Counted from the stretch's first letter, positions 21,008 to 34,380 are shown. The stretch: DNA of 34,380 nucleotides from a virus (IMGVR_UViG_2671180849_000019); one strand, 5' to 3'. The notes: generated by a model from the letters alone, not told the origin. Numbers and translations are program-made.

Positions 21008-21748
21008 TTACTCAATAGGTTCAAACTCATCCTGAGGAATCAGCGTCGATTGACAGGCTTGGCTTAGTACTCCTGATAATTTACATAATAACCGATAGTT
21101 ATGAGGAGCATCATCGCTAATCTTTTCGACCGTTAAAGTGATTGATTTTGGATCATCCAATAACATCTTCTTGATATCATTACTTAAATACCTAGGGCAG
21201 TAACCAACGATTTCAGCTGGTTTATCTGCACGAACGACAACAGCATCCCCATCGTATTCATTTTGAAGATCCAAGCAAAGACGCAAAATTTGCCCCGGTT
21301 TCAATTCAGATACACGAGCATTAGCTAAGCTATTTAAGTAACCAAGTCCATGTAAGAAGAAAAAATGCTCAAAGTTACCATCAGAATCAACATCAATTTT
21401 TTTGAAAATCTGCAGCTGATCAGTGCTTCGTAAGCCTCCCGAGCGAGCAAGAATATCGATAGGATTTACCTTATCTTCTTCAAATCCAAGCCATTTAATG
21501 AAACTCGGATACTCTGGACGTCTCGGTGATAAAAGGCGATTTTTAAAAAGAGGAAACAATTCTTCCGAAACATAAGTTTCACGAACATCACTCATGCCGC
21601 TAAACTTTGTAAATTTAGTAGATTTGAGAGCACCTTTGGTATACCTGAAAACATACCCCGATTTGCGCTCTTGCAAGTTACCAACAACATGCCAGTCTCT
21701 GGTATCTGGTGCCTGCCATGCGACGTAAACGGAGTTTGTATTAGTCAT
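21008..21748 (-). CDS. hypothetical protein with C-terminal HIRAN-like domain (predicted DNA 3'-end binding); second gene of the kinase cassette
   Basis: 246-aa ORF whose ATG overlaps the kinase stop (ATGA). Segment LRLCLDLQNEYDGDAVVVRADKPAEIVGYCPRYL fits the HIRAN signature as recalled. Confidence 0.6.
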   Translation of the reverse strand: MTNTNSVYVAWQAPDTRDWHVVGNLQERKSGYVFRYTKGALKSTKFTKFSGMSDVRETYVSEELFPLFKNRLLSPRRPEYPSFIKWLGFEEDKVNPIDILARSGGLRSTDQLQIFKKIDVDSDGNFEHFFFLHGLGYLNSLANARVSELKPGQILRLCLDLQNEYDGDAVVVRADKPAEIVGYCPRYLSNDIKKMLLDDPKSITLTVEKISDDAPHNYRLLCKLSGVLSQACQSTLIPQDEFEPIE

Positions 21749-22659
21749 TCTAGTAACCTTCTGCGATTTTCCATTACCATTAACGTTGCAAATCTACGTG
21801 CACTGTCGGATATACACGATGAAGGCACTTGGTTAAACACATCTGTAATGGAATCTTCTGTTAAAACGCTCAACTTACCTAACCAATGGTCGCGAGCGGC
21901 AACTCTCCCTTCAACTGCATGTTGAAATGCTTCAACGGTCAGCAAGGGCTTTTTATCAGTTTTTGCTTTGAATAGCTCAGAGCGAGCTTTTCTTACAAAA
22001 CATGGGATTTGTCGATTTTTATCTTTAGTATTAAGCCGTTCGTTACGCTCATCATCTAACATCTCCCTTCCTAAACTAGCGGCATGATCGTATGTTGGAC
22101 ACAAAAACTGCTCACCAGTTTCATTGTTAAGCATGATCGCCCAATTTTCATGATGGCGATCTTGATTACTCACAAGTGCATCGAGCATCAAATATCCACA
22201 AAATACATCTGCTGCATTTAGCCCGGTTAGATCATATACACTCGGAGGAGGCTTGATAGATTCCCTATCTAAACAACCCAATACCCTTGTGACAGTGTGT
22301 TCTCTGACCCTTACCGGCTTTTCCCCGGCTTGTAAAGGCCCAGGATAATCGAATGTCGAACTGTGAAGCACTTCATTTCCCATTACCATCCGGAAACCAG
22401 ATGGAATGATATTCTGAGTCACCACACCGAATCGACCATTGTATCGCGCCAAATCATAGCTAGCATGTGGAATGTTAAGCAAATGACATAACTCAGCAGC
22501 ACACTTTTCAGACCAATGCTCGCCAGTACCTGGCCTAGAGTACTTAAACAACTGCAAATTTACAGTGTCATCGGAGAAATAGAACCAAAACTTCTCTTTG
22601 GTTCCTAACTGTTCAAGATCGTTAGCTACGGGGCTAAGCTCTACCAATTGGTATGGCAT
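21745..22659 (-). CDS. HipA-like Ser/Thr kinase (short, HipT-sized, lacking the HipA N-terminal subdomain)
   Basis: Catalytic-loop motif LVSNQDRHHENWAIM and downstream LCPTYDHAASLG match the HipA D-x-H-x-x-N and P-x-YD motifs; Gly/Lys-rich N-terminal segment QLGTKEKFWFYF. Confidence 0.7.
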   Translation of the reverse strand: MPYQLVELSPVANDLEQLGTKEKFWFYFSDDTVNLQLFKYSRPGTGEHWSEKCAAELCHLLNIPHASYDLARYNGRFGVVTQNIIPSGFRMVMGNEVLHSSTFDYPGPLQAGEKPVRVREHTVTRVLGCLDRESIKPPPSVYDLTGLNAADVFCGYLMLDALVSNQDRHHENWAIMLNNETGEQFLCPTYDHAASLGREMLDDERNERLNTKDKNRQIPCFVRKARSELFKAKTDKKPLLTVEAFQHAVEGRVAARDHWLGKLSVLTEDSITDVFNQVPSSCISDSARRFATLMVMENRRRLLE

Positions 22660-22818
22660 CTGACATCCCTGTTTAGCGGATTATGAATAAGTTAGGTTCC
22701 ATTTTATCCAAACATTGTCAAATACTCTAAGATTTATTAGATGATAGAGCGATACTGTATGCATGTCCAGCAATCAAATCAATATATAACTCTTATATGA
22801 CTTAGCGCGCGCTCGTAT

Positions 22819-22830
22819 CCCCGCCACGCC
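22819..22830 (-). other. possible cos-related sequence (GGCGTGGCGGGG on the minus strand)
   Basis: 12-nt exact match to the 5' part of the 186 cohesive end as I recall it (GGCGTGGCGGGGAAAGCAT); the remaining 7 nt do not match. Confidence 0.25.
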
Positions 22831-22852
22831 TGCCCGCTTTATGTAGTGGTTT

Positions 22853-22954
22853 TCATGCACCTGCATGACATAAGCAAAAGCACGCCAGTTCTGGCTGACT
22901 TCAGCAAAAACGATCCTCAAACGATCATGCGATCTCATGCGTCATAGTCATGCG
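22853..22954. promoter_or_regulatory. array of TCATGC(A/G) motifs (one 16-bp palindrome plus three direct repeats) overlapping a cluster of three GATC sites
   Basis: Palindrome TCATGCAccTGCATGA at 22853-22868; TCATGCG at 22925, 22935 and 22948; GATC at 22912, 22923 and 22931, all in the intergenic region between the two divergent cargo operons. Confidence 0.3.
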
Positions 22955-23254
22955 CTGCCAAGGGAAGCGTAAATCCGTATCTGAATGACTGCTGAAAAGC
23001 GAATCATACGGGTTTACAAAGATGAAAGTTCGCTGTGAGCGAGAAGCGAACCTTGCAACTTTGTTGGCACAGTTTTAACACCAATTTTTTGAGGATAGCT
23101 AGAAAACTTGTGGCATAAAGGATCAGTTTCCCGATCGAACTTTTTATCAAGAAGGGCTCATAGCAATCGCCAGAAGAAGTGATGTTAAAGTATTGAGCTC
23201 GGCGTTAAGATTAAATAAATTACAGACTAATCCAATGTTTTGTGGAAGGATAAG

Positions 23255-24298
23255 ATGGCAGTCAAGCGCGCATACTACGGTAACGATAGTGACCGAGACT
23301 ACTTAGAGCGGATATTTCAGTCAGCTAACATTAACTTTCTCATCGGATCAGGTGCATCCCTCCCAGCGATTAAAGTACTGGGGACAATCGAAACGGATCT
23401 TCAGCAGCTTATTAATGATGAACAGGAAGATGAATACTTAAGGATGGCAGCTGACTTTTTGTCAGATGTTTGGCTACCTCATGAATGCATGTTGAAGCGC
23501 GGCTACGGCACCCCCTTCGCACCTCAGGTGATCACCGATTTGGAATGTACCCGTGCAAATTATGATGCATTTATGTCTTCACTGGAAAAGATACTGACCC
23601 GCCGCCGAACTGGCCTACTTCCGAGGCGTATTAACGTTTTTACAACTAATTATGATTTATTCATCGAAGAAGCTGCCACACGTAATAACAATATTCTTTT
23701 TAATGATGGATTCAATAGAAGAGCAAGTATTTTGGGAGATGCGGAATTTGATGCGGGTAGCTTTAATCATTCTGTAAGTGCAACCGGAAATCTGTATAAT
23801 TATAAAGTTGAGCTTCCTACTGTTAACCTTATAAAACTTCATGGTTCGCTCTCTTGGCAGCATTCTAAAGGGAAAATCATTTATCGTATTGCAGATATTA
23901 AGCCGCTTGACTTTCCCACCCTAGCCGAAATGAAAGGATGGGTACTTGCTCATGCACTTATTCTTCCACGTAAGGAGAAGTTTAAAGAGACTCTACTACA
24001 GAACGTTTATTATGATTTACTGAGAACCTATTCCAACGAGCTTGATAAAGAAGCAACTTTACTAATTGTCTTTGGGTTCTCGTTTGCTGATGAGCACATT
24101 GAAACGATAACTAAAAAAGCCCTGCGCAACGCCACCCTGAAGCTACTGATCTTTGCTTTCGATGAGGCCAGTGTTAACGGCTTTATGGAGAAATTTCGGG
24201 ATTACTCAAACGTAGAGATTATTTATCGGCCGGGAAGAAATGTTGATTTTCCGGTAATGAATAACATTATCACGTGCTATCTGGGAGGCTCGAGATGA
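23255..24298 (+). CDS. SIR2-family NAD+-binding protein (defence-associated; SIR2 component of a SIR2-HerA pair)
   Basis: Motifs NFLIGSGASLP (Gly-rich NAD loop), VFTTNYDLFIE and LIKLHGSL (catalytic His). Start taken at ATG 23255 after GGAAGGA; the ORF track starts at TTG 23240. Confidence 0.85.
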   Translation: MAVKRAYYGNDSDRDYLERIFQSANINFLIGSGASLPAIKVLGTIETDLQQLINDEQEDEYLRMAADFLSDVWLPHECMLKRGYGTPFAPQVITDLECTRANYDAFMSSLEKILTRRRTGLLPRRINVFTTNYDLFIEEAATRNNNILFNDGFNRRASILGDAEFDAGSFNHSVSATGNLYNYKVELPTVNLIKLHGSLSWQHSKGKIIYRIADIKPLDFPTLAEMKGWVLAHALILPRKEKFKETLLQNVYYDLLRTYSNELDKEATLLIVFGFSFADEHIETITKKALRNATLKLLIFAFDEASVNGFMEKFRDYSNVEIIYRPGRNVDFPVMNNIITCYLGGSR

Positions 24299-26154
24299 GC
24301 AGGCATTTTACTGAAGAGGAAGCGGTGCTCCGTATAGGCGAAGTCTGTGAGGTTTCTGGACGCGCTGTGACAATTTTGGTCGATAAAAACAAAAATCTCA
24401 GTGACTTGTTTTATCAGGGAAAAGTTCTAAGAAATGTATCAGTGGGTAGCTTCATTGAGATCAAAAAAGGTTTCATGAGCCTGATCGGCAAGGTTGAAGC
24501 GGAACGAATCATTGAGGAAAAACATCTCGCTGGGAGCGGCAGTGATGCCTGGCGATATCGGCGATACCTGACCTCTACTCTTACGGGTTACATTGATCGT
24601 ACTGGTTGCTTCATTGGTGGTTCGCGTGAACTACCTCTCATCGGCAATGAAGTCTTCGTGGTAACTGAAGAGATGATACAAACGGTTCATCAGATAGCTA
24701 ATGCAGACGAAACTGTAATGAGGTTTACTCGTACAGATCTTGAAGATATTGAAATTGCACTACCAATCAATGGTCTTATTAATTCCCACATTGCCATTTT
24801 CGGTAATACAGGCAGCGGAAAGTCAAATACCCTAGCCGCGCTATACAAAGCAGGTATTGCCCAAGTTAAACATATTCTCGGCAACCACTTTAGTGAAAGA
24901 TGCAAATTTATTCTATTCGACTTTAATGGAGAATATACTGCCCCACGCTGTATTACTGACGAGAAGACGGTTTATAATCTCAACACGCACCATGCAAATG
25001 GTGACAAACTTCCTCTACCCAGAGAGGTTCTACTTGAGCATGATATGCTCTCAGTTCTAACCGATGCAACAGACAAAACACAGAAACCTTTCCTGAAGAG
25101 AGTTCTTGAGTTTCGCAAGAAAGTGATGACTGCTGATAATCCTCTTGAGTTTATGCGCAATATCCTGAAGAAAAAAGTCAGACAAAATCTCTTTAGTAGC
25201 GACAAACCCAAATGCGATACTATAAATCAGTTTCTTAGCCCAATTTTCAAAGATGACCCAGAACTTATATCTGATCTTGAGTATCATTCAACTGCATATA
25301 AATGGAAATTGAGGGGTGGTAGTATTTTCAATACAGAAGCTGATACTGAGCGCTCCTATCTATTCAGTCTTGCAAGCAATTTTTTATTTAAAACTGATAT
25401 GATTGAAGAACTGTTGGACTTTATGTACTTACAGTTAATACAGGAATATTTATCTAACAAGTCTAACCCTGAACATATTTCACCAGTTATAAATAGAATG
25501 AGTGCTAACCGTAAAGATATAGCCAAAATATTTGATACTTCCGGACAGTCTGACTTTTGGGGTGAACATAATTTCACGGTTGTGAATCTAAATATGGTTA
25601 ATATAACCATGAAAAAAACGCTTCCTCTTTTGATAGCCAAGTGGGCTTACAATATGAAGAAAATGTCTACAGAGAAATCTACACTGCACATCATTATAGA
25701 TGAAGCCCACAATATTTTGTCTAATACTTCTTTTCGGGAAACGGAAAGTTGGAGAGATTATCGTCTGGAAACTTTTGAGGAAATCATAAAGGAGGGGAGA
25801 AAATTTGGAGTTTTTATCACAATTTCCAGTCAACGCCCTAATGATATATCGTCGACAATCATATCCCAAGCACACAATTATTTTATTCATCGCCTTATTA
25901 ATCAGAATGATCTGTACGCAATTGAAAAATCAGTATCATATATAGATCGACTGACTGAAGAGTCGATTCCAACGCTATCTACAGGAACCTGTATTTTTAG
26001 TGGTATCGTCTGCCCCATGCCGCTCAAATTAAGGGTAGCTGAACTTCCAATTGAAGAAAAACCTAAGAGTAATACTATTTCCTTCAACGATTTAATACCT
26101 GAGAGGCTGGGAGAGGATGACCAGAGCGACTACGTAATAACCAGCCCTCACTAA
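24295..26154 (+). CDS. HerA/FtsK-like ATPase (HerA component of a SIR2-HerA defence pair)
   Basis: Walker A FGNTGSGKSNT and Walker B LHIIIDEAHNI; ATG overlaps the SIR2 stop (ATGA) with a GGGAGG RBS. Confidence 0.85.
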   Translation: MSRHFTEEEAVLRIGEVCEVSGRAVTILVDKNKNLSDLFYQGKVLRNVSVGSFIEIKKGFMSLIGKVEAERIIEEKHLAGSGSDAWRYRRYLTSTLTGYIDRTGCFIGGSRELPLIGNEVFVVTEEMIQTVHQIANADETVMRFTRTDLEDIEIALPINGLINSHIAIFGNTGSGKSNTLAALYKAGIAQVKHILGNHFSERCKFILFDFNGEYTAPRCITDEKTVYNLNTHHANGDKLPLPREVLLEHDMLSVLTDATDKTQKPFLKRVLEFRKKVMTADNPLEFMRNILKKKVRQNLFSSDKPKCDTINQFLSPIFKDDPELISDLEYHSTAYKWKLRGGSIFNTEADTERSYLFSLASNFLFKTDMIEELLDFMYLQLIQEYLSNKSNPEHISPVINRMSANRKDIAKIFDTSGQSDFWGEHNFTVVNLNMVNITMKKTLPLLIAKWAYNMKKMSTEKSTLHIIIDEAHNILSNTSFRETESWRDYRLETFEEIIKEGRKFGVFITISSQRPNDISSTIISQAHNYFIHRLINQNDLYAIEKSVSYIDRLTEESIPTLSTGTCIFSGIVCPMPLKLRVAELPIEEKPKSNTISFNDLIPERLGEDDQSDYVITSPH

Positions 26155-26731: not shown

Positions 26732-26773
26732 CTTTCCTCCTATGACACCAAAGCGATACTGTATACATAACCA

Positions 26774-26789
26774 CTGTTTATATTTACAG
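26774..26789 (-). promoter_or_regulatory. LexA operator (SOS box), CTGT-N8-ACAG
   Basis: CTGTttatatttACAG with an AT-rich spacer, upstream of the small ORF and DinI-like gene; a degenerate half-site (TATACAGTA) lies nearby. Confidence 0.6.
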
Positions 26790-26883
26790 TATATAATAAT
26801 CTTACTGATGTAAAACGTTTTTTTACGTTCATCAGCCAGAAATGCCTGGTATTATTAAGAGCACGAATTGTTAACCCGCGTAA

Positions 26884-31439: not shown

Positions 31440-31958
31440 TCACAGCAAACCGAATGAAGCACCGAGGCCAGTCACGGTATCAACTGCACTCGCCATCGCA
31501 GGATTAGCCTGTAAACGGGCCTGCAATGAAACAGCAGCCAGCGCCATCAGTCGTGTTACAGAGTTAATGCTGCTGATAGCATCACGACGACCGGCACTAG
31601 TTTTTACATCACCAGATACCGCACCTGCTGCAACACGCCCGATCTCTGCAGTTGCGCTCATGACGTAATGCGGCAGTTTCTCTTTTGCTACCTCATTAAT
31701 CGGTACACATGGCAGACAATGAATCTGTGCCAGAAAACCATCTACCAACGTTGAATCTTCAGTCAGATCGGTAAGCAGCCAGATTTCTGGTGCGGTTAAT
31801 AAATGAGGTTGAGCTGGGTTCAGCTTGTTCCGCAGAATCTGCACATTCATGCCCGCACGTTCTGCCAGTTGCACCAGATTGTGGCGCAGTGTGAATGCAC
31901 GACAGGCTTCATCAAAATGTGGATGTTTGGAAACTTGGTAATCAAACATGGTTTTCAA
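31440..31958 (-). CDS. cII: CII-like transcriptional activator (phage 186 CII family)
   Basis: [19 protein letters not shown]...[21 protein letters not shown]...[24 protein letters not shown] matches 186 CII as recalled. Confidence 0.8.
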
Positions 31959-32013
31959 CTCCGAACTTATCGCAAAATCGAACTCAGCGTCTTATTGCGA
32001 AAATAGACGTCTA

Positions 32014-32217
32014 TTAAGCAGACAAAGCATCAACAGTCAGAGCAGCCATGTTAATCATTACCTTTTCACGTTTTTTGTCTTTACGAAGACGATGACGAGG
32101 TAGTCGGCCATCAGCCAACATGTCGTTAATCGTATCAATAGAAAGGCCAGTCAGTTCGCTATAACGTTCGATTGTGACATGTGGTGTATTCAGAGTAATT
32201 GAAATGTTAGGTGTCAT
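32014..32217 (-). CDS. apl: Apl/Cox-like excisionase and lytic-switch regulator
   Basis: 67-aa HTH protein, first gene of the leftward early operon, divergent from cI. Confidence 0.7.
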
Positions 32218-32362
32218 AAGGCAACATTCCTTCTAGATATGGCTTGTGGCGAGCCGTTGTTTGTCGTGATTAGTAGTGAAGGCTCCAAAAGAACACTTCT
32301 GGTTCAACTTTAAGATCGCTTTTGGAATCTGTCAACGAATTTTGGATTTCTTTGGAGGACTT

Positions 32363-32932
32363 GTGGATTTCAATAGCGGCGGTAAGAAAGCCATAGAACG
32401 TTTAGTTGAAGCATATGGGTTCGGTACCCGTCAGGCTCTATGTGATCATTTAGGTGTTTCTAAGAGCACCATGGCAACGCGCTATATGCGTGATATTTTT
32501 CCAGCAGATTGGGTAATCCAGTGCGCCCTTGAAACGGGCACCTCGCTTAATTGGCTAACAACAGGGCATGGTTCAAAGCAAGCATCAGCAAATACAAATA
32601 CTATAGAAGTAGAAAAATATTTATTGTCTGATGGAGCATTGCAGAAAGACGGTTTTTATATTTTTGATAAGGGATTTCTACCCTCTACGTTTAAAAAACC
32701 TTTTGTCATCACAGATAACAATTCTGAATTTATTTGTGATAAAGAATTTGATGATATACGTGATGGTAAATGGGTAATAAGTATTGATGGCGAAATAACT
32801 ATCCGTGACATTACTCGTTTACCCGGTGGAAGAATCTTCGTCGAGGGTGGAAACAGAGCCTTCGAATGCAAGATAGAAGACATTGAAATAATTGGTAAAA
32901 TTATAAGTTTAACAGTCAAGTATGTTAAATAG
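32363..32932 (+). CDS. cI: CI immunity repressor (186 type); start uncertain
   Basis: EAYGF...CALETGTSLNWLTTGHG and a C-terminal domain resembling 186 CI. GTG at 32363 follows GGAGGA; the ORF track extends to GTG 32276. Confidence 0.75.
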   Translation: MDFNSGGKKAIERLVEAYGFGTRQALCDHLGVSKSTMATRYMRDIFPADWVIQCALETGTSLNWLTTGHGSKQASANTNTIEVEKYLLSDGALQKDGFYIFDKGFLPSTFKKPFVITDNNSEFICDKEFDDIRDGKWVISIDGEITIRDITRLPGGRIFVEGGNRAFECKIEDIEIIGKIISLTVKYVK

Positions 32933-32947
32933 TACCGGGAGGAAACT

Positions 32948-33139
32948 ATGCTTGGTAAGGTATTTTTTGTGGTTTTGTCATGTTCTTTGTTATTAAACCC
33001 ACTAACTACCTATGCTAGAAATTATCCCTGCTCAGGGAAAAAGGGAGGTGTTTCTCACTGTACCTCAGATGGCAAATTCGTTTGCAATGATGGAACTATT
33101 AGTAAATCCAAAAAAATCTGTACTAAAAACTCACGATAA
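32948..33139 (+). CDS. small secreted cysteine-rich protein (candidate lysogeny-expressed moron)
   Basis: GGGAGG RBS; N-terminal signal peptide [23 protein letters not shown] followed by about 40 residues with 4 Cys and many Lys. Sits between cI and int. Confidence 0.5.
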
Positions 33140-33327
33140 CTTTTGCTTTTATATCTGCGTCTAAAATAAAAATGAGCCGCAGGTTAACCGCAAAAGTTAC
33201 ATGCTCACATAGCAAAAAGAATAGCCAACTTAATTATGGCTTCAGTGAGATGTATGGTCGTAGGATTTCATACATTGACACTGGTTATACATACAGTGAA
33301 AATGCTCTCTACTGGAGGGCATTTTTT

Positions 33328-34380
33328 ATGGCAGTACGAAAACTCACCACTGGGAAATGGCTTTGCGAATGTTACCCCGCCGGACGAAGTGGGCGTCGTG
33401 TGCGTAAACAATTCGTCACCAAAGGCGAAGCACTGGCTTTTGAGCGCCACACGATGGAAGAAACCGAAGCAAAGCCCTGGCTGGGTGAATCAGTGGATCG
33501 TCGAACACTGAAAGACGTGGTTGAGCTATGGTTCAAACTACATGGTAAATCTCTGACAGCTGGGCAGCATGTCTATGACAAATTGCTGTTGATGGTTGAC
33601 GCTCTGGGCAATCCTCTTGCAACCGATCTCACCTCTAAAATGTTTGCCCACTATCGAGATAAACGCCTGACAGGCGAGATCTACTTCAGCGAGAAATGGA
33701 AGAAAGGAGCAAGCCCGGTCACCATTAACCTGGAGCAAAGCTATCTAAGTAGTGTTTTTAGCGAACTATCCCGTCTGGGCGAATGGTCGTATCCGAACCC
33801 ACTGGAGAACATGCGAAAATTCACCATCGCAGAAAAAGAGATGGCATGGCTTACCCATGAGCAGATTGTTGAATTGCTGGCTGATTGCAAACGTCAGGAC
33901 CCAATTCTGGCACTGGTAGTTAAGATATGCTTAAGCACAGGCGCACGCTGGCGTGAAGCCGTAAATCTTACCCGCTCACAGGTGACCAAATACCGAATTA
34001 CCTTTGTCAGAACGAAGGGGAAGAAAAACAGAAGCATCCCTATCAGTAAAGAGCTTTACGAAGAGATCATGGCGCTTGATGGGTTCAATTTCTTCACAGA
34101 CTGCTATTTTCAATTTTTATCCGTGATGGAAAAAACGTCTATCGTACTCCCTCGCGGTCAACTCACACACGTTCTGCGCCATACGTTTGCGGCGCACTTC
34201 ATGATGTCGGGTGGAAACATTCTGGCCTTACAAAAAATTCTCGGACACCACGATATAAAAATGACTATGCGTTACGCACATCTGGCACCGGATCATCTGG
34301 AAACGGCGCTCCGTTTCAATCCTCTGGCAACGCTGCCAAGTGGCGACAAAGTGGCGGCAGCGGTTGGCATTACCCCGTAA
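33328..34380 (+). CDS. int: tyrosine integrase (P2/186 type)
   Basis: C-terminal catalytic region with ...RHTFAAHFMMSGG...LGHHDIKMTMRYAHL (R...HxxR...Y). Start at ATG 33328 after GGAGGG; the ORF-track start at 33172 is an upstream extension. Confidence 0.9.
   Translation: MAVRKLTTGKWLCECYPAGRSGRRVRKQFVTKGEALAFERHTMEETEAKPWLGESVDRRTLKDVVELWFKLHGKSLTAGQHVYDKLLLMVDALGNPLATDLTSKMFAHYRDKRLTGEIYFSEKWKKGASPVTINLEQSYLSSVFSELSRLGEWSYPNPLENMRKFTIAEKEMAWLTHEQIVELLADCKRQDPILALVVKICLSTGARWREAVNLTRSQVTKYRITFVRTKGKKNRSIPISKELYEEIMALDGFNFFTDCYFQFLSVMEKTSIVLPRGQLTHVLRHTFAAHFMMSGGNILALQKILGHHDIKMTMRYAHLAPDHLETALRFNPLATLPSGDKVAAAVGITP

Follow-up and report, generated by a model that had tools for sequence, protein, structure and literature searches.

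A YdcA-family mini-protein gene in the cI-int interval of a 186-like Escherichia coli prophage

The lysogeny module and its small predicted exported protein

Our analysis covered a stretch of 34,380 nucleotides of viral DNA (IMGVR_UViG_2671180849_000019, here called the window), the 3′ end of which holds the lysogeny module of a 186-like (Peduoviridae) E. coli prophage. The genes and sites of this region are compiled in Table 1. The original prediction had placed an ORF of 63 aa with a strong ribosome binding site in the interval between repressor and integrase, and this description was borne out: the ORF is preceded by a GGGAGG motif, lies downstream of a 186-type cI and is followed by a P2-type int. 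The start of cI is given according to the RefSeq annotation of identical DNA, its frame being open back to position 32276, and 15 nt separate the cI stop codon (32930-32932) from the ATG of the ORF, which is referred to as ydcA in the following. The int DNA of the window is 97.5% identical to int of vB_EcoM-813R9.

The G+C content is 0.30-0.39 from the 3′ half of cI through the ydcA cassette, compared with 0.46-0.52 in int. The 3′ half of cI is thus as AT-rich as ydcA, and ydcA co-varies with that cI allele. Similarity to phages without ydcA restarts at around position 33250, which delimits a cassette of approximately 32933-33245 consisting of the ydcA ORF and about 105 nt with a long hairpin. 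Elsewhere in the window we observed two defence modules within 21008-26154, an interval located between the portal-side genes and the replication gene, namely SIR2-HerA and the candidate system PDC-M03.

Table 1. Coordinates of genes and sites in the window, with the evidence for each assignment.
Feature	Position	Strand	Evidence or remarks
PDC-M03 B (candidate defence system)	21008-21748	-	HIRAN domain in the B protein
PDC-M03 A (candidate defence system)	21745-22659	-	
SIR2 defence gene	23240-24298		PADLOC, 6e-211
HerA	24274-26154		7e-267
LexA box CTGTTTATATTTACAG	26755-26795		strong, 2 mismatches; second CTG-rich half-site just upstream
cII	31440-31958	-	Phage_CP76, 2e-41
Apl/Cox-like excisionase	32014-32217	-	phrog_575, 2e-30
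cI repressor, 186 type	32363-32932	+	Pfam Phage_CI_repr, 3e-31; Phage_CI_C, 5e-29
Shine-Dalgarno motif GGGAGG of ydcA	32937-32942	+	direct sequence reading; ends 5 nt before ATG
YdcA-family gene	32948-33139	+	63 codons and TAA stop; 63 aa
Predicted signal peptide, residues 1-23	32948-33016	+	predicted signal peptidase I cut after TYA
Predicted mature peptide, 40 aa	33017-33136	+	four Cys; net charge about +7
Long hairpin from the ydcA stop codon	33137-33199	+	outer stem UAACUUUUGC/GCAAAAGUUA, inner stem UCUGCG/CGCAGG; no U-run
Promoter-like site TTGACA-17-GAAAAT before int	33275-33303	+	near-consensus
LexA-box-like palindrome CTGGTTATACATACAG in the spacer of the promoter-like site	33281-33296	+	consensus search
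Hairpin AAAAUGCUCUC-UACUG-GAGGGCAUUUU followed by U-run	33299-33327	+	contains int Shine-Dalgarno motif (33314-33319); ends at int ATG
P2-type tyrosine integrase, 350 aa	33328-34380	+	Int_N, 3e-32; Phage_integrase, 7e-22; phrog_1, 2e-74

The hydropathy profile and an alignment of homologues both indicate a typical signal peptide, as had been expected from the DNA, with a short charged start (MLGK), a hydrophobic core of 12 residues and the segment NPLTTYA, and with predicted cleavage between this Ala and the following Arg. Ala23, at position -1, is the only signal-peptide position kept in at least 96% (96-100%) of homologues. The remainder is, as anticipated, a Lys/Cys-rich peptide of 40 aa (4.3 kDa, pI 9.7, 7 Lys, 2 Arg and 4 Cys). 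Among 47 homologues the mean pairwise identity is 80% in the mature part versus 25% in the signal peptide, which together with the near-invariant Ala is the mark of a strongly constrained exported peptide. The prophage protein has all invariant and near-invariant alignment columns, i.e. the four Cys, KGG[VI]SHC, F[VI]CxDG and SxSK, and His37 is near-invariant beside the four invariant Cys. An AlphaFold2 model shows a small beta-hairpin core with pLDDT values of 83-91 for residues 31-60. A lipoprotein reading of Cys12 was considered and rejected: the preceding residues V-L-S do not fit a lipobox, the corresponding residues in relatives (L-L-F, L-L-I or I-L-V) are not lipobox-like either, and the Cys is only 11 residues away from the N-terminus. 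The ORF is a real gene for a small Cys/Lys-rich peptide with predicted Sec export.

Transcription of ydcA and the region before int

A sequence scan of the cI-to-ydcA interval found no promoter-like (sigma-70) or terminator-like site. As ydcA lacks its own promoter and begins 15 nt behind cI, it would be transcribed on the cI (pL) message in the lysogen, and co-transcription with cI from pL is the simplest and most likely reading. The hairpin at the 3′ end lacks a U-run, and overall ydcA looks dependent on the cI promoter. According to an alignment this hairpin belongs to the ydcA cassette and is absent in relatives without ydcA. It may act as a processing site or a stabiliser, or it may be a relic of the donor locus. 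The E. coli B-type allele has a shortened outer stem without compensating changes. The predicted fold of the region 33136-33330 has a free energy of -60.9 kcal/mol (z = -6.2). An Rfam search of 31900-33500 gave only two sub-threshold matches to CRISPR repeats, which we regard as chance matches.

The original prediction had ydcA co-transcribed with both cI and int. The first half of this claim is consistent with the 15-nt gap, the gene's own Shine-Dalgarno motif and the interval free of promoter-like and terminator-like sites, whereas the second half sits poorly with a promoter-like site and a hairpin directly before int. A search with the LexA consensus (at most 3 mismatches) gave three matches in the window versus 0.03 expected, and the LexA-like box before int is kept in JA0257, 813R9, ESSI2_ev129 and Yersinia despite diverged surroundings. 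Equivalents of the hairpin that covers the int Shine-Dalgarno motif are also present in relatives; a terminator scan of the region did not list this hairpin. With a putative LexA-box promoter of its own and a hairpin over its Shine-Dalgarno motif, transcription from cI-ydcA into int appears doubtful. The 5′ arm of the hairpin would be missing from a transcript initiated at the putative int promoter, and from this layout we suspect that cI-ydcA messages end or are silenced ahead of int, which would itself be switched on by the SOS response. In this respect the window differs from 186, where cI abuts int. A further LexA box in the window (CTGTTTATATTTACAG) precedes small ORFs of the minus strand that lie between SIR2-HerA and the replication gene, a region which we take to resemble the p95/tum SOS operon of 186.

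The YdcA family and the variable slot between cI and int

The ORF is not a novel insert but belongs to the widespread and annotated YdcA family. The protein scored 115.8 bits against NCBIfam NF007463 (YdcA/PRK10040.1-2; curated cutoff 93), with residues 5-63 matching model positions 1-58 out of 58, and was assigned to this subfamily and not to NF007462 (68.5 bits versus a cutoff of 118). PHROG 6000 (phrog_6000) was matched with an E-value of 1.9e-34, and PF27300 is precomputed on all close homologues; a Pfam-A scan with a local copy not containing PF27300 gave no match. RefSeq names the identical protein “YdcA family protein” (WP_000900883.1), and the exact protein is recorded on more than 1,000 contigs. 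Its UniRef label is “Conjugal transfer protein”, for which we found no basis except, possibly, the link to Dis2 and type IV secretion described below. Our literature searches found no mention of the prophage gene, its accession numbers, PF27300 or phrog_6000.

When 5,426 complete E. coli genomes were searched, 709 contained the cI-ydcA segment, with a coverage of at least 80% in 592 (about one in nine); E. coli B derivatives such as C43(DE3) are among them. A survey of related prophages, suggested along with the original prediction, found the reading frame conserved, and it also extends to phages of Yersinia and Haemophilus. Between E. coli alleles that are 9-12% apart in DNA we counted 11 synonymous versus 1 non-synonymous differences (dN/dS 0.02), and the comparison with the JA0257 allele gave a dN/dS of 0.07-0.09; the range for ydcA is thus 0.02-0.09, versus 0.06-0.17 for cI. 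The prophage alleles are under strong purifying selection. The ORF is short (63 codons), AT-rich and functionally uncharacterised, as would be expected of a chance ORF or a decaying, non-functional remnant, but this explanation has practically no probability left and is refuted by the conservation data: the curated family cutoff is exceeded, substitutions are nearly all synonymous, and about 590 E. coli genomes as well as the Yersinia and Haemophilus phages have an intact frame. Since the ORF is conserved and its family is already catalogued, it is a common accessory gene and not a new kind of element. A 3-kb contig from a “MAG: Bacillota bacterium” (JAEWTL010000113.1) encodes a 100% identical protein in the same cI-ydcA-int layout, most likely owing to contamination or mis-binning.

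A search of 1.8 billion representative proteins with the YdcA profile recovered 444 clusters. With one genome per species scanned, family members were found in Gamma-, Beta- and Alphaproteobacteria and in MAGs labelled as Myxococcota, and the mature part is about 80% identical across the Alpha-, Beta- and Gammaproteobacteria. IMG/VR contains 493 relatives, which, among the matches listed (80 loci), are only near-identical E. coli copies and therefore add abundance rather than diversity. The family occurs in three forms: proteins of about 57-63 aa, proteins of about 105-130 aa that have gained another Cys domain, and still longer or tandem proteins. The second domain of longer members follows the pattern CxCRSGxxCTGPRGGxYC..GxKSYxRR, while others have two or three tandem YdcA domains; longer or tandem members include those of loci L036, L045, L048, L052, L058 and L065, and forms from Providencia measure 200-250 aa, including long tails of low complexity. 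The family is mostly chromosomal in Proteobacteria, with E. coli K-12 ydcA as an example, and the commonest setting of ydcA is an ordinary chromosomal context.

The surroundings of family members vary widely. Among 80 species-level loci no neighbour gene was common across clades, and the recurring neighbours (cytochrome b561, P2-type phage cI and DUF2946, with 5-6 loci each) are clade-restricted. In a few genomes ydcA adjoins Mu Gam or GemA. Chromosomal ydcA lies beside cybB and rydC in Escherichia and Shigella but not in Salmonella or Citrobacter (PMC11340327). Such heterogeneous settings indicate that the family behaves as a single-gene accessory module. Phages outside the P2 group carry the gene too: Moraxella phages Mcat13 and Mcat24 have homologues among annotated tail genes, upstream of large tail genes, and the Acinetobacter Vieuvirus phage Ab11510-phi has one in an unannotated gap with neighbours that are all labelled hypothetical. 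Several of these homologues lack annotation, and all of these sites are outside of a lysogeny module, so that expression in the lysogen is no general rule for the family.

In P2-like phages of Escherichia, Yersinia and Haemophilus, ydcA always follows straight after a 186-type cI. The order cI-ydcA-int is found in Yersinia prophages (loci L006, L007 and L022) and in Pasteurellaceae (loci L064, L066 and L067), and the Haemophilus phages HP2 and S2 have an unannotated homologue of 60 aa. The gap after cI is 15 nt in E. coli and 48 nt in Yersinia, while in HP2 and S2 the first base of the homologue is also the final base of the cI stop codon. Between the three genera cI is 27-36%, int 50-66% and the mature YdcA part 76-86% identical. 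Iterative int and cI profiles found this layout only in Escherichia, Yersinia and Pasteurellaceae. Owing to their narrowness the profiles may overlook repressors of other types, for example in locus L048, in which ydcA is preceded at a distance of 1 nt by a 217-aa ORF and followed by a 343-aa ORF.

The statement in the original prediction that P2 and 186 have no gene in the interval was correct: cI directly abuts int in 186, and the 115-nt stretch from C to int in P2 carries no annotated gene. ESSI2_ev129 has 77 nt from cI to int and no cargo. In other relatives the slot holds different genes. We found a 558-aa PD-Lambda-1 defence protein in vB_EcoM-813R9 (PADLOC 3e-120), a 348-aa protein without assigned identity in Klebsiella phage 4LV2017, ydcA with a recombined 3′ end followed by a KAP family NTPase in E. 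coli JA0257, and a 354-aa protein, an N-acetyltransferase and an ASCH-domain protein in E. coli 20AR0354, whose cI is recombinant and matches the window cI in its 5′ part. The slot of Vibrio phage K139 contains orf2 and glo. Rousset et al. reported that K139-like phages have a defence hotspot between cI and int (PMC9122126), and 8% of P2 defence systems lie in the wider int-primase interval (PMC13586616). As the slot is empty or carries different cargo in relatives, ydcA is best regarded as accessory cargo of a known variable slot, in line with what had been foreseen from the window.

Classical lysogenic-conversion morons are bor and lom of lambda and old, tin and fun of P2, and by textbook definition a moron is framed by its own promoter and terminator. 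The prophage ydcA is moron-like as a single accessory gene with a lower G+C content than its neighbours and a patchy occurrence in close relatives, being absent in 186, P2 and ESSI2_ev129 and replaced by PD-Lambda-1 in 813R9, but unlike a textbook moron it has no promoter-plus-terminator frame around it.

Overall identity between the prophage protein and YdcA of E. coli K-12 (b1419) is 53%, and the prophage protein passes the curated family model. Both share a Sec signal peptide and a domain of about 35 residues with the pattern PCSGxKGG[VI]SHC...GKF[VI]CNDG[ST]xSxSKKxC. Chromosomal YdcA is a predicted periplasmic protein of 57 aa without assigned function (PMC11340327); its gene has an RpoS-type promoter region (PMC5493296) and was reported to be induced by acid through YdcI (PMC7642389). 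The prophage paralogue differs in its position behind cI instead of next to rydC/cybB, so that its regulation presumably follows lysogeny and not RpoS or YdcI.

The only relative of YdcA with a solved structure is Dis2 of Legionella (Lpg0823; PDB 7MUC/7MUD, chain AN). An hmmsearch of PDB sequences with the YdcA profile returned Dis2 with an E-value of 3.3e-4, aligning the signal peptide, CS-K-GG[IV]xxC and VCN[DN]G, and it was likewise the top Foldseek match of the prophage protein (7muc_AN, probability 0.77, 38% identity; 7mud_AN, 44% identity, rmsd 1.7 Å over 27 columns). A Dis2-like protein from a protein collection carries PF27300 and aligned to the YdcA profile by hhalign with an E-value of 1.6e-4 and a probability of 51%. 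The similarity spans 21-46 columns and is remote and statistically modest (E about 1e-4). Dis2 and YdcA share the arrangement CS-K-GG[IV]-x-x-C...G-x-x-VCN[DN]G-x-x-S after the signal peptide, and each Dis2 lobe appears to be a homologue of the YdcA domain. There are two such lobes, with five disulfides, in Dis2 but a single lobe, with four Cys, in the prophage protein, and Dis2 is a stoichiometric component of a secretion machine, whereas no secretion-system genes were found among the window ORFs examined. Judging from these alignments, the relation is one of domain homology and not of orthology. Dis2 is a periplasmic protein located near the outer membrane in the Dot/Icm outer-membrane cap, where it is pinned by disulfides with clear density (PMC8486379). 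It had no structural relatives when first described (PMC8486379), and the published accounts consider it confined to Legionellales (Legionella and Coxiella), without evident homologues in other groups (PMC8486379, PMC12716638). Dis2 is dispensable for assembly and its deletion has only subtle effects (PMC12716638). In the searchable literature we found no mention of a link between YdcA and Dis2.

Possible functions of the prophage protein

Our overall reading, which we hold tentatively and with slightly less than even confidence, is that the ORF is a functional YdcA-family mini-protein gene, carried as cargo of the cI-int slot, whose product acts as an envelope-binding lysogenic-conversion factor. 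The first steps of this reading are, taken jointly, very probable: ydcA would be transcribed in the lysogen on the cI (pL) message, the precursor would be exported by Sec and cleaved after Ala23, and cleavage would release a strongly basic 4.3-kDa peptide with two disulfides into the periplasm. The later steps are considerably more doubtful but have a real chance of being correct. The peptide may bind a conserved envelope component close to the outer membrane, since Dis2 as the only solved relative docks in this way, and the lysogen may thereby gain the same envelope or stress benefit as from chromosomal ydcA, now tied to prophage immunity. The prophage gene would then be a lysogenic-conversion gene acting alone, without a partner gene. 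Deletion of ydcA sensitises E. coli W to 3-hydroxypropionate (PMC7642389); the chromosomal phenotypes are, however, weak and come from this single study, and the similarity to Dis2 is short and concerns part of a secretion machine, no genes of which were seen among the window ORFs examined.

The main rival to the envelope/stress reading is superinfection exclusion, which we consider unlikely but worth weighing. Periplasmic YdcA, made together with cI, would block a step of rival phages at the envelope, such as DNA injection or the action of the tail lysozyme, and it may also block conjugation or a machine similar to type IV secretion. The closest parallel is Glo of the P2-related (Peduoviridae) Vibrio phage K139, which occupies the same slot (PL-cI-...-glo-int), is annotated in GenBank as “periplasmic protein; involved in phage exclusion” and, according to a paper citing Nesper 1999 (PMC3952083), is a soluble periplasmic protein made by the K139 lysogen. 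The placement of ydcA between cI and int and the predicted export of its product correspond to those of Glo. Glo is, however, a protein of 137 aa with a documented exclusion role, whereas such a role would be assigned to the 63-aa YdcA by analogy, and the two proteins showed no homology (BLASTP E-value of 0.16 over 30 residues). That other occupants of the slot in close relatives with the same int are anti-phage genes, namely PD-Lambda-1 and the KAP NTPase, favours exclusion, but no PADLOC family matched the prophage protein at an E-value of 0.01 or below. Temperate phages that are not related to each other share YdcA (Moraxella Mcat, Acinetobacter Vieuvirus and Mu-like contexts, besides the relatives in IMG/VR), and Dis2 docks on a machine translocating DNA and protein (PMC8486379); against this stand the mostly chromosomal family, the subtle effects of Dis2 deletion and the degree of conservation of the mature part across Proteobacteria, which is the opposite of the usual rapid diversification of exclusion proteins. 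A broader version, also by analogy and with an even smaller chance of being right, would make YdcA-type mini-proteins a widespread, phage-spread class of periplasmic “plugs” that dock on a conserved outer-membrane-associated machine, the prophage copy blocking rival phages or conjugative DNA. If true, a 40-residue exclusion system of a single gene, placed by the repressor from Haemophilus to E. coli, has been missed by defence catalogues.

Two further functions appear much less plausible. In a role in metal handling, which is highly improbable, the Cys and His residues would bind periplasmic Cu or Zn rather than form disulfides. The protein has the four invariant Cys and the near-invariant His37, DUF2946 genes occur near copper-uptake genes, and a DUF2946 protein is encoded downstream of ydcA in six Atlantibacter/Citrobacter-type loci, but these neighbours are confined to one narrow clade and no metal genes are found near the prophage ydcA. 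Moreover, the cysteines of Dis2 form disulfides (PMC8486379). We give still less credence to the toxin or bacteriocin that the original prediction had allowed for, in which the released peptide would kill or inhibit competitors or host cells. The protein is phage-borne, small, cationic and Cys-stabilised like many antimicrobial peptides, but its Sec leader, which is not of the double-glycine type, is predicted to take it no further than the periplasm, and genes for export, processing or immunity are absent beside ydcA in the prophage and in the 80 loci, where no neighbour recurs across clades. Furthermore, ydcA is a single-copy chromosomal gene in many species, E. coli K-12 among them, and in E. 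coli it is the deletion and not the presence of the gene that is harmful (PMC7642389).

As a sequence object the prophage ydcA is ordinary, its protein being identical to a RefSeq entry and present in about one in nine complete E. coli genomes. The point of interest lies in a tiny, strongly conserved protein of the predicted periplasm that has been acquired repeatedly by unrelated temperate phages, and that P2-like phages of three genera keep linked to their immunity repressor. This linkage, the gene in HP2 and S2, the relation between YdcA and Dis2, and the LexA-box promoter-like site of int may all merit follow-up. If YdcA alters the envelope of the lysogen, by stress tolerance or by exclusion, it would offer an inexpensive example of lysogenic conversion that is simple to test, and an initial functional lead for both E. 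coli ydcA and the lobes of Legionella Dis2.
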